Assembly (NCBI GenBank): GCA_951406725.2
Contig: OX597817.1
Coordinates: forward strand, 19,716,001 to 19,780,000
DNA: 64,000 nucleotides
Origin: Octopus vulgaris
Taxonomy: Eukaryota
Direction of reading: 5' to 3'
Shown here: positions 3,246-63,375 of the stretch, in pieces
How the letters are laid out: every line of letters starts with the position of its first letter
Position numbering within the stretch: position 1 is the stretch's first letter
Position numbers and translations under genes: made by a program
The notes under the pieces: generated by a model
The model's database searches: none
What the model was told of the DNA's origin: nothing
Seen by the model: the letters and a program-made list of their open reading frames with translations, nothing else

Positions 3246-3749
3246 GTAATAATAATTATTATTTTTATAACTATAGTATAACCTTTTCTGTTTTTTAAAC
3301 CCTAAGGGTAATAAACATTGGAGACGGTGCAAGATTACAAAACAATACAATGTGTGCTGCATCTGTTCAGAGTAGGAAACGAACTTACAGAAATAGATTG
3401 GATAATTTTCAGAAATAAATTCTCATTTGGAGAAATCTTAGGATTATGTAGAATTAGGAGGACAATCAAGTGGATTTATAAATGTGAAAATTTGAAAGAT
3501 ATATTGTATGCACGAAACTAATAAAGGAGAAAGTATAAAGCTAGGAACGATTGGTTTTGATGAATGTAGTTGTATTCTATCAAGTTAAAAATATTAATTA
3601 ATATCTATAGAATGAGTGTCATGTCAACATTCTTACATAAGTATCTTATTTTCTCTTGCTTAAATTTGAAATGTTATTACATGTTATCTTTTTCGTTTAA
3701 TGAAAAAATATTATACATATCCTATATGTATATATATATATATATATGT

Positions 3750-3782
<33 letters not shown>

Positions 3783-11670: not shown

Positions 11671-12295
11671 CTGTGAGAGATGGTTTTACCATTTTCCTTG
11701 AAAGCCAACATGATTTCATACACTGTAACTCACGAAACAGTTAGTAAATCATGTTAGTATTATAGAAACAAGGTGAACAATTGATCTGTTTCAAAGACTG
11801 AACTTCCAACTCGCCACGTGCCGAAACATTGCCATATTAGGAAATTATATAACTGGTGCATTGTAACATGTTGTAATATAAATATCACCAAAGGAAGAGT
11901 CAACAGTGAGTATATCATGACGTGCAAGGCATACTTGATACCTGTAAACATATGTACTCTGGTCCTGATTTGCCATACTGTCTTCTAACTTCTAAAGTTG
12001 CCATACAACTTTATATCTACATTAATTCAATGTAAATATAAAGTTGTTTACTTTGCCCAACTCCAGTATAGTTGCATGATCAAGCAGTAGATTACCAGTT
12101 CAGGTCAGAATATTATTCAAATTATTAATGAACGTGCCGTCAGGATATTGTTTATAATATTAATGATCTCACTGTCAATAATATTCTTTTCTAAGCACAG
12201 ACACACGCAAACACACACACACATATGTACACATGTGTCTTGCAAACAACTTGCACATGCAAGTGCTACCAGTTAAAAGCTCCGTATACCGGAAG

Positions 12296-12407
12296 CTAGC
12301 AAGTGTATGGGGTCATCAGGAGAGAATGCGCGCCGTTTCGGGGCCTACCTCTCGACGGCATCAATGCGCACCGGCCCCCCTCACTGATATGAGGCCCCGC
12401 TTGCTAG
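12296..12407. other. GC-rich self-complementary island containing hammerhead sequence parts
   Basis: Terminal inverted repeat ctagcaag/cttgctag; internal pairings gagag/ctctc, gccgt/acggc and ggggcc/ggcccc. CTGATGA, GAAAC and GTC occur on the minus strand. Confidence 0.6.
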
Positions 12408-12670
12408 ATCATTAATGCAAAGTACTTAACATTTTGAGAGTTTAGTGATGTATACATCATGCAAGCACTCCGATTGTGAAGTGAAACGGCAAAACGACCA
12501 CAAAGAGGTTTTGTGCAGCTAAGTCTGCTTTTCTTTTTAATTTTCGTCCTTAGAATCTAAAATATTGACTAATAATATTGACTCTCATATTTATCATTAT
12601 TAACGTTGACGATCATTATTAATGTTGCTACATTCATAGAGATATCAGTGCCTATATATAGCTCTAATAA

Positions 12671-12900
12671 GGCGGCGAGCTGGCAGAAACGTTAGCACGC
12701 CGGGCGAAATGCGTGGCCGTTTTTCGTCTGCCGTTACGTTCTGAGTTCAAATTCCGCCGAGGTCGACTTTGCCTTTCATCCTTTCGGGGTCGATAAATTA
12801 AGTACCAGTTACGCACTGGGGTCGATGTAATCGACTTAATCCCTTTGTCTGTCCTTGTTTGTCTCCTCTGTGTTTAGCCCCTTGTGGGTAGTAAAGAAAT
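12671..12900 (+). mobile_element. tRNA-derived SINE family A, near-intact, with 14-bp target-site duplication
   Basis: A box tggcagaaacg, B box gagttcaaattcc, central gactttgcctttcatcctttcggggtcgataaattaagtacc domain. TSD tatatatagctcta at 12653-12666 and 12904-12917. Confidence 0.93.
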
Positions 12901-27979: not shown

Positions 27980-28128
27980 TAAATATTAGGGAATAAATCC
28001 AAATTTACAGGAAAAAATCAGATTTAGGATTAAATCCAATTTTATAGTAAAATATTATAAAATATTATTAGAGACAAAACCACTATTTTGCAAAACAAAC
28101 AAGGAAAGACAAATAGTCAAAAAAACCG

Positions 28129-28170
28129 CCACTACAATTGTTTCTGTCTTGATCGACAATCTTCAGGTGG
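28129..28170 (-). ncRNA. Type I hammerhead ribozyme, mirror copy
   Basis: Reverse complement of 28217-28259, lacking one A in helix II. Confidence 0.75.
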
Positions 28171-28216
28171 ACTTCCAATAAGTCAGTTTCAAATTTGAAA
28201 CTGACTTATTGGAAGT

Positions 28217-28259
28217 CCACCTGAAGATTGTCGATCAAGACAAGAAACAATTGTAGTGG
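28217..28259 (+). ncRNA. Minimal type I hammerhead ribozyme
   Basis: CCAC-CTGAAGA-TTGTC gatcaa GACAA-GAAA-CAATTG-TA-GTGG. 4-bp helix I, 5-bp helix II, palindromic helix III (ACAATTGT), GUA triplet. Confidence 0.85.
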
Positions 28260-28341
28260 CGGTTTTTTTGACTATTTATTAAAATTTTATGTATTGATTA
28301 AGTCTTTCCTTGTTTGTTTTGCAAAATAGTGGTTTTTCTCT

Positions 28342-62858: not shown

Positions 62859-63375
62859 ATACAAAATGGGACAAAACATCCAGACAGGTGATAGAAAAAA
62901 CTGACACCAAAACATCCAGAAACACGACACGAAGAAAACAGGGACGTGTGATTCGGAGTTTTCTTTCCTCAGTCGAGGTCCAGATTATCTTTGCAATTTC
63001 GGCTCGTTATTACTCGAGAATGCTCCAATCTGGCCATCCCAAGGAAAAACTAAGCTAAGAGCATTAGATTCCTTGGAAGAAAGCAGCGAATGCATACGGA
63101 AACAAGGCCGGAAAAAACGGAGAATGTTACACAAATACAAATAAGAGGACATAACAACAGATTTCTTTCGACTAAGGACGATTTAAATTAAAGTGGCATG
63201 TGTGGAAATAAATCCTTACAGCAGGGATACAAGATTTCACAGGTACAGGGAGGAATACAGATGTTGCACGGACGACGGCCAAAGCAAGAAAGAATGATCA
63301 GGCTTGGACGAACACCGGTCATGTGGGGAGAGAGGAGAGAGAAGTAGATGCAGAGGGCCAGAAGAATAAAATGCA
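62858..63375. repeat. Unclassified interspersed-repeat-like insert between microsatellites
   Basis: Purine-rich ~520-bp block bounded by (CA)/(TA) tracts; decayed CTGAGGA..GAAT motif on the minus strand. Confidence 0.35.

Follow-up and report, generated by a model that had tools for sequence, protein, structure and literature searches.

The window analysed here is a 64,000-nucleotide stretch of AT-rich animal DNA from the 2.8-Gb genome of Octopus vulgaris. On its minus strand, all of the core letters of a hammerhead ribozyme (CUGAnGA, GAAA and U-H with A15.1-U16.1) are present within a short distance of each other; however, the blocks that carry them follow the order S-G-C and not the cyclic C-G-S order of types I, II and III. 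An Rfam scan of the window gave no family at gathering score. The locus raises the question of whether such an arrangement could be a working ribozyme and, if so, what it would be doing in an animal genome. A preliminary description had named the GUC, GAAA and CUGAUGA motifs, the complementarity of stems I and III beside them, the inverted repeat that closes the unit and the non-circularly permuted order of the blocks, and each of these was confirmed from the letters (Table 1). It had also called the feature a GC-rich island and explained it as a scrambled template-switch product of a hammerhead RNA, a ribozyme assembled from more than one molecule or a MITE with coincidental motifs, all of which are revised below.

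The retrotransposon that carries the motif

The supposed island lies in a 174-bp 3' fragment (12238-12411, minus strand) of a high-copy R2-like non-LTR retrotransposon, referred to here as family A. The fragment is a 5'-truncated copy in which 58 nt precede the predicted cut and 116 nt follow it, and it shares 99.4% identity with the end of a full-length copy (L176). The genome contains 2,075 candidate copies of the 3' stretch, and the 40 that were scored are all 99-100% identical. Copies have a common fixed end about 60 nt past the 112-mer that forms the ribozyme domain and extend upstream for variable lengths; measured from ribozyme to ribozyme, the unit is 3,738 bp long. The copy in the window is a passive fragment in which the motif is intact.

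Upstream of the family A tail is the end of a single ORF of 1,095 aa, in which an RT domain was found, and the best PDB matches of the protein are R2 proteins. A zinc finger, a zinc knuckle and a PD-(D/E)xK-like motif can be read by eye in the ORF, and Pfam gave no match for the zinc knuckle or the endonuclease region. The single ORF, the fixed 3' ends and the variable 5' truncation, together with the knuckle and endonuclease motifs read by eye, place family A among the non-LTR elements with a restriction-like endonuclease. A MITE is not compatible with these features, as the parent codes for an RT, has no terminal inverted repeats and carries the 8-bp inverted repeat internally. Fish, amphioxus and many other assemblies contain relatives of the protein with 35-62% identity, and no relative was found in the viral contigs searched. 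In a tree of 121 relatives, none with a HERO reference name, family A falls in a separate, well-supported sister group to the fish and amphioxus proteins. The element is likely a member of the HERO clade, a name given on the basis of its C-terminal motifs and of general descriptions.

Several side observations concern the surroundings of the element. A local tandem array at G000:C29, about 18.63-18.65 Mb (L033, L036 and L039), contains amplified family A 3' fragments with several ribozymes 1.8-6 kb apart. Three contigs filed as bacterial or archaeal genomes (L276, L277 and L278) hold pieces of HERO-like animal retrotransposons and are likely contamination. In the window, a different and very common short repeat is found at about 12655-12900, 250 nt from the element, and recurs in many of the fetched loci; we take it to be SINE-like.

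The predicted fold and its conservation

Table 1. Parts of the predicted family A ribozyme and its tail, in window coordinates
Feature	Position	Strand	Remarks
Whole predicted ribozyme domain	12296..12407	-	Closed by outer helix P0, 12407-12400 with 12303-12296 (8-bp inverted repeat)
Helix Y, 5' strand (GGGG)	12395..12398	-	Pairs with CCCC 12312-12309, directly 3' of CUGAUGA
Hairpin Z	12379..12394	-	6 bp, 12394-12389 with 12384-12379; third arm of the four-way junction
Displaced stem II, 5' strand	12373..12378	-	First base is the G10.1 equivalent; pairs with 12345-12340 just before GAAA
Stem I-II bridging helix, 5' strand (SGC 'I' interaction)	12366..12372	-	7 bp with 12331-12325
Block S: stem III strand, GUC 12356-12354, stem I strand	12348..12360	-	Motif read and strict test; U16.1 is 12355, C17 is 12354; cleavage predicted between 12354 and 12353
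Block G: stem II 3' strand, GAAA 12339-12336, stem III strand	12331..12345	-	Motif read and strict test
Block C: stem I strand, CUGAUGA 12319-12313, helix Y 3' strand	12309..12325	-	Motif read and strict test
Tail from ribozyme to fixed 3' insertion end	12238..12295	-	Two small hairpins, one with arms 12249-12255/12258-12264, the second read by eye

Read from 5' to 3', the predicted order of parts is helix Y, hairpin Z, the stem II strand, the bridging strand, block S, block G, the second bridging strand, block C and the returning strand of Y. Helix Y, hairpin Z, stem II and the core are predicted to meet without an unpaired base, forming a perfect four-way junction that opens the core between A9 and G10.1. 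In ordinary hammerheads no more than 0-2 nt separate A9 from the 5' strand of stem II, which is not the case here; in block C the 3' strand of helix Y stands where a stem II strand would be. Five of the seven helices (P0, Y, Z, bridging and III) are recovered, in whole or in part, in a blind minimum-energy fold, with pair probabilities of 0.92-1.0 for P0, 0.86-0.89 for Y and 0.47-0.96 for the bridging helix. Hairpin Z is present in the minimum-energy fold as well, yet its pair probability is only about 0.28. Nested folding assigns zero probability to stems I and II because both are pseudoknots that cross other helices, which the program cannot place.

The preliminary description had looked for the missing stem II strand on the 5' side, which proved right, and had identified it as ggggcct, which did not; the conserved partner is the displaced strand in Table 1. 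Pairing of ggggcct with aggcccc was rejected, having a pair probability of 0 and being absent in relatives such as L196 and L123. As that description also stated, no pairing is possible between the bases that follow CUGAUGA and those in front of GAAA, which holds for the copy in the window and for 27 of the 29 sequences passing the strict test described below. The repeated gcgcatt, which had been taken for a scrambling junction, corresponds to the two strands of the near-palindromic bridging helix, and L196 keeps this helix while losing the direct repeat. An HDV-like reading of the same stretch was dropped by eye, as it has no P2 partner.

A loose S-G-C pattern has 1,251 matches in the genome versus 49 for a reversed control, and this search exposed two further families, B and C, unrelated to family A, in which the block order is kept and the stems are entirely different. 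It was through comparison of families B and C that the four-way-junction layout was recognised. Related loci were fetched by alignment of the protein C-terminus (80 metagenome and 3 genome-bin loci), and an S-G-C core with stems I and III lies no more than 450 nt from the ORF end in 45 of these 83 loci from other organisms. No core was seen in the other 38, some of which are incomplete or decayed. The 45 foreign sequences, minus 2 incomplete ones, were combined with the copy in the window and 11 host representatives (a twelfth had no core) into a set of 55 sequences, which was reduced to 39 at below 80% identity.

The strict test applied to this set demanded a perfect junction, at least 4 bp in both stem II and hairpin Z, at least 3 in helix Y and at least 5 in the bridging helix, thresholds that were fixed after the real sequences had been seen. 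It was passed by 29 of the 39 non-redundant sequences, including 25 of the 29 from other organisms, compared to 30 of 3,900 controls with shuffled upstream arms (0.8%) and 35 of 1,482 with swapped arms; when the window's own upstream arm was shuffled, 2 of 2,000 passed. Six of the ten failures are old host-genome copies, and these make up all of the host failures (6 of 10 representatives). A looser junction score separated the sequences poorly from controls, with 246 of 1,560 shuffles passing, and the strict test was used in its place.

Among the 29 passing sequences, the first pair of stem II is G-C in 27 and G-U in 2, and pairs 2-4 vary while staying paired. As in known hammerheads, G10.1-C11.1 and C15.2-G16.2 are nearly fixed; the remaining pairs vary, and most helix positions display at least four pair types. 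Stems I, II and III adjoin the core and have both-sided pair changes in the strict-test pair tables; the helix partners were picked by complementarity, so that the tables depend on the shuffle controls, and the related sequences are not independent. The bridging helix has at least 5 bp in all 29, by the test's own rule. A direct route to the 10.1-11.1 pair is possible in only 2 of the 29, and a direct stem II as in type SGC, which could start in those 2 alone, was ruled out. The cleavage-site triplets are only GUC, GUA and GUU, in a search that itself required U-H, and GAAAC is invariant in 28 of 28 aligned rows that had been chosen for GAAA.

In a MAFFT alignment of 28 of the 29 passing sequences (L136 was left out), RNAalifold run blind found stem I only, with both-sided changes in all 5 of its pairs and a covariation score of 0.89 versus 0.23 for the shuffled alignment. 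The other helices were missed owing to misalignment of the 5' arm by MAFFT. Among the variants listed at 10% or above for four other sequencing runs, none falls inside L042 1068-1181 and the only one in the domain keeps P0 paired as U-G; both flanks vary.

These results bear on the origins offered in the preliminary description. A scrambled template-switch product is contradicted by an arrangement that folds in cis and by helices whose letters differ while the pairing persists in 29 of 39 dissimilar sequences. Assembly in trans or as a multimer fares no better, since the fold is again in cis and two identical molecules would offer CCCC against CCCC, with no direct stem II. What speaks for these options, the MITE included, is a short direct repeat and a second complementary G-run in this one family, whereas the same order and helices recur in most of the dissimilar foreign sequences (25 of 29), where the repeat is not conserved and the helix is. 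Jointly, they are regarded as very improbable.

The layout is not restricted to family A. Families B, C, D and E of the same genome are unrelated to it and have an identical layout with different letters, and further patterns reveal families D to I. Family C (1,978 candidates) sits at the end of a second HERO-like ORF, and families B and E are non-coding; their units measure about 0.6-0.9 kb and include both tandem and inverted pieces.

Further observations were made on the repeats of the host genome. The same ribozyme layout is seen in at least six non-coding repeat families (L072-L112, L136-L175 and L279-L308), with family E having 3,430 candidates and the subfamily L105-L107 having two extra U at the junction. 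A decayed family E copy is present in the window itself at 62921-63143 (minus strand, 79% identity), and the S-G-C four-way-junction layout is still legible in it. An abundant endonuclease family (L309-L338; 19,894 candidates, no Pfam match), which we take to be Penelope-like, has an S-G-C core within 900 nt after the ORF in 0 of 30 loci; on the basis of this one family, a connection between the non-coding families and Penelope elements was set aside. At about 28060-28330 in the window, an inverted (fold-back) repeat pair centred on 28193/28194 contains, by eye, a hammerhead of ordinary order with a short stem III and a palindromic loop, of the Penelope type.

Copy architecture and a proposed replication cycle

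Sixteen of 30 family A copies found by the ORF N-terminus cross from the 3' end into the 5' UTR, 13 of them with a whole ribozyme, as counted by eye. Sixteen long copies were chosen from these. More than one full unit is contained in 10 of them, 13 begin with a stretch of their own 3' end about 120-1,855 nt long, and in 14 the end lies 116-126 nt beyond the cut; no target-site duplication is evident at the 16. In foreign loci of at least 3 kb, direct repeats 3.6-4.1 kb apart are present in 15 of 49. Such a fixed start, combined with a variable stop beyond one unit, fits copying round a circle. The joint across GUC is letter-perfect in 13 tandem copies, apart from one point change. As most copies run unbroken over the cut site, any cleavage must be undone or bypassed. 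Contigs of four presumed-RNA runs cover the stretch, contigs being a form of data that cannot show ends or a circle. In a single case, a foreign contig (L209) has its first base 2 nt past the predicted cut and shows the same sequence again one unit further on (1-90 and 3684-3773).

A trace of cleavage was sought in all 60 family A copies that match the downstream anchor exactly and mismatch the three bases 17-19 nt upstream of the cut. Of these, 33 continue beyond deletions and 2 pick up again in the element. The other 25 have clean 5' ends, 7 of which fall on the first base after GUC, with one a base further (P = 9e-7 for a uniform distribution over 45 positions; 4e-5 corrected). Two more copies end at the cut by eye and stand outside the count. 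The truncated copies at the peak are 120-bp inserts that begin at the cut and reach the usual 3' end. Six of the seven have a T immediately 5' of the cut, so the peak is placed only to within 1 nt; this T may be an untemplated addition or a CpG-decayed C17. RT stalling at the structure could add to the peak, but an RNA with its 5' end at the scissile bond would be the simplest cause, in which case the peak provides genomic evidence of the predicted cut happening in the animal. In family C, matches in the corresponding truncation search were swamped by point variants.

Alternatively, the motif could be a hammerhead-derived fold that does not cut and instead docks the element's protein, with the tandems arising through read-through transcripts or insertion beside an earlier copy. 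Element proteins of this kind bind their RNA near the priming end, and the motif is located 60-120 nt from it; in addition, the core is interrupted where no junction is known to be tolerated, and most copies pass the site unbroken. A docking role alone, however, sits poorly with the retention of all core letters and of G10.1-C11.1 and C15.2-G16.2 across very different sequences and non-coding families, with the narrow choice of cleavage triplets (U-H having been required) and with the pile-up of 5' ends at the scissile bond. This alternative is considered improbable, and ribozyme activity of the family A fold is strongly suggested.

The reading that we favour, and consider fairly likely, is that the family A tail contains a hammerhead with an A9/G10.1 four-way junction which cuts the element RNA at GUC, and that the resulting unit RNA is probably circularised and internally primed. 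As the 3,738-nt unit is flanked by the motif on both sides, cleavage would trim read-through transcripts of more-than-unit copies to unit length. The ribozyme helices, if the three-dimensional fold is as we infer, would hold both ends of this RNA together, and the ends would probably be ligated to form a circle. Reverse transcription would next be primed by the element's protein, about 120 nt past the cut, the tail likely being where it starts. On an unjoined RNA, copying would run off the end and leave a 120-bp insert whose start is the cut; round a circle it would continue and produce a more-than-unit copy with a variable 3' piece of its own in front, thereby regenerating two ribozymes.

As a separate observation, five successive small hairpins with GAAAGA loops are found past the priming point in the family A 5' UTR, 120-300 nt after the cut in L176 and also in L238, and a similar hairpin follows the priming point in one foreign relative. 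These are possible binding sites of the element's protein.

Cleavage could also lead to the same more-than-unit copies through a jump of the RT from the 5' end of the cut RNA to the 3' end held alongside, with no covalent circle. Template jumping by R2-type enzymes is established, the truncation peak shows that linear ends are copied, and one copy (L376) breaks off at the cut and is taken up again about 1.4 kb further upstream in the element, which is the pattern of a jump. Template jumps often add or lose bases, however, and the GUC joint of the tandem copies is almost without change; 5' overhangs of up to 1,855 nt also fit continuous copying. A jump in place of ligation is thus held to be unlikely, though worth some weight, and the docking fold is less likely than this. 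Extending the circle model beyond family A, it appears slightly better than an even prospect that an entire R2-like clade and several non-coding families replicate via a ribozyme-made RNA circle with internal priming, the core being split at A9/G10.1 and reconnected by the four-way junction, with the remainder of the element as one arm of the ribozyme.

Comparison with known systems

In the literature covered, which excluded most subscription journals and Repbase Reports, there was no permuted hammerhead in a retrotransposon, no HERO hammerhead and no A9/G10.1 four-way junction. Natural type-SGC hammerheads (HRIMA-1 and variants) have the S-G-C order and a helix bridging stems I and II, and their cleavage has been shown (Eckert et al. 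2023, PMC10085705). In that paper, block C is assumed to be uninterruptible, with no insertion of more than 1-2 nt known there, and the motifs are described almost only from metatranscriptomes, with none in a eukaryote genome. Family A shares with these the S-G-C order, all core letters, stems I and III, the short link between stem I and stem II and the helix bridging these stems, which is in places joined directly to stem III. The two differ in that the strand after CUGAnGA is stem II in type SGC, whereas here it forms the extra helix Y, and the stem II and bridging strands are found 5' of block S, behind hairpin Z, which creates the A9/G10.1 four-way junction. They also differ in their hosts, animal retrotransposons in the present case. 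Compared to the definition of the type, the order and the bridging helix are present and an intact block C, with stem I, CUGAnGA and stem II in one run, is not. Judged from the letters, the motif is a real, conserved new hammerhead variant that falls outside strict type SGC by one feature. If true, natural hammerhead topologies would extend past the six block orders thought possible by breaking the block assumed unbreakable, and a non-circularly permuted ribozyme would be present in animal genomes in thousands of copies.

Penelope-like elements also have a hammerhead, placed in the terminal repeat, and form partial tandems arranged head to tail; a circle model has been proposed for them, and an extra base between 9 and 10.1 is tolerated there (Cervera and de la Pena 2014, PMC4209133). 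The proposed steps of cutting, ligation and more-than-unit copying are the same as those suggested here. The Penelope hammerheads, however, have the ordinary strand order, often act as dimers and belong to elements with a GIY-YIG endonuclease, whereas family A has a non-circular order, a predicted monomeric fold and a host with a restriction-like endonuclease.

With HERO elements, as described in the accessible parts of PMC4640811, PMC10294476 and PMC7650587, family A shares a single ORF with an N-terminal zinc finger, RT, zinc knuckle and PD-(D/E)xK-like endonuclease, dispersed insertions that are not site-specific, and relatives in fish and amphioxus. The comparison is one of descriptions, and those parts mention no ribozyme or circular template. 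R2 elements with a 5' HDV-like ribozyme (see PMC13580325) are similar to the proposed model in that a self-cleaving RNA frees an R2-like template from a read-through transcript. The ribozyme is of another class, and R2 copies start at the cut and are primed at the 3' end of the RNA, whereas family A would be primed about 120 nt after the cut and be copied across it. The mechanism offered here for head-to-tail non-LTR insertions would thus involve an R2-like enzyme that primes inside a circular RNA and not at a 3' end.
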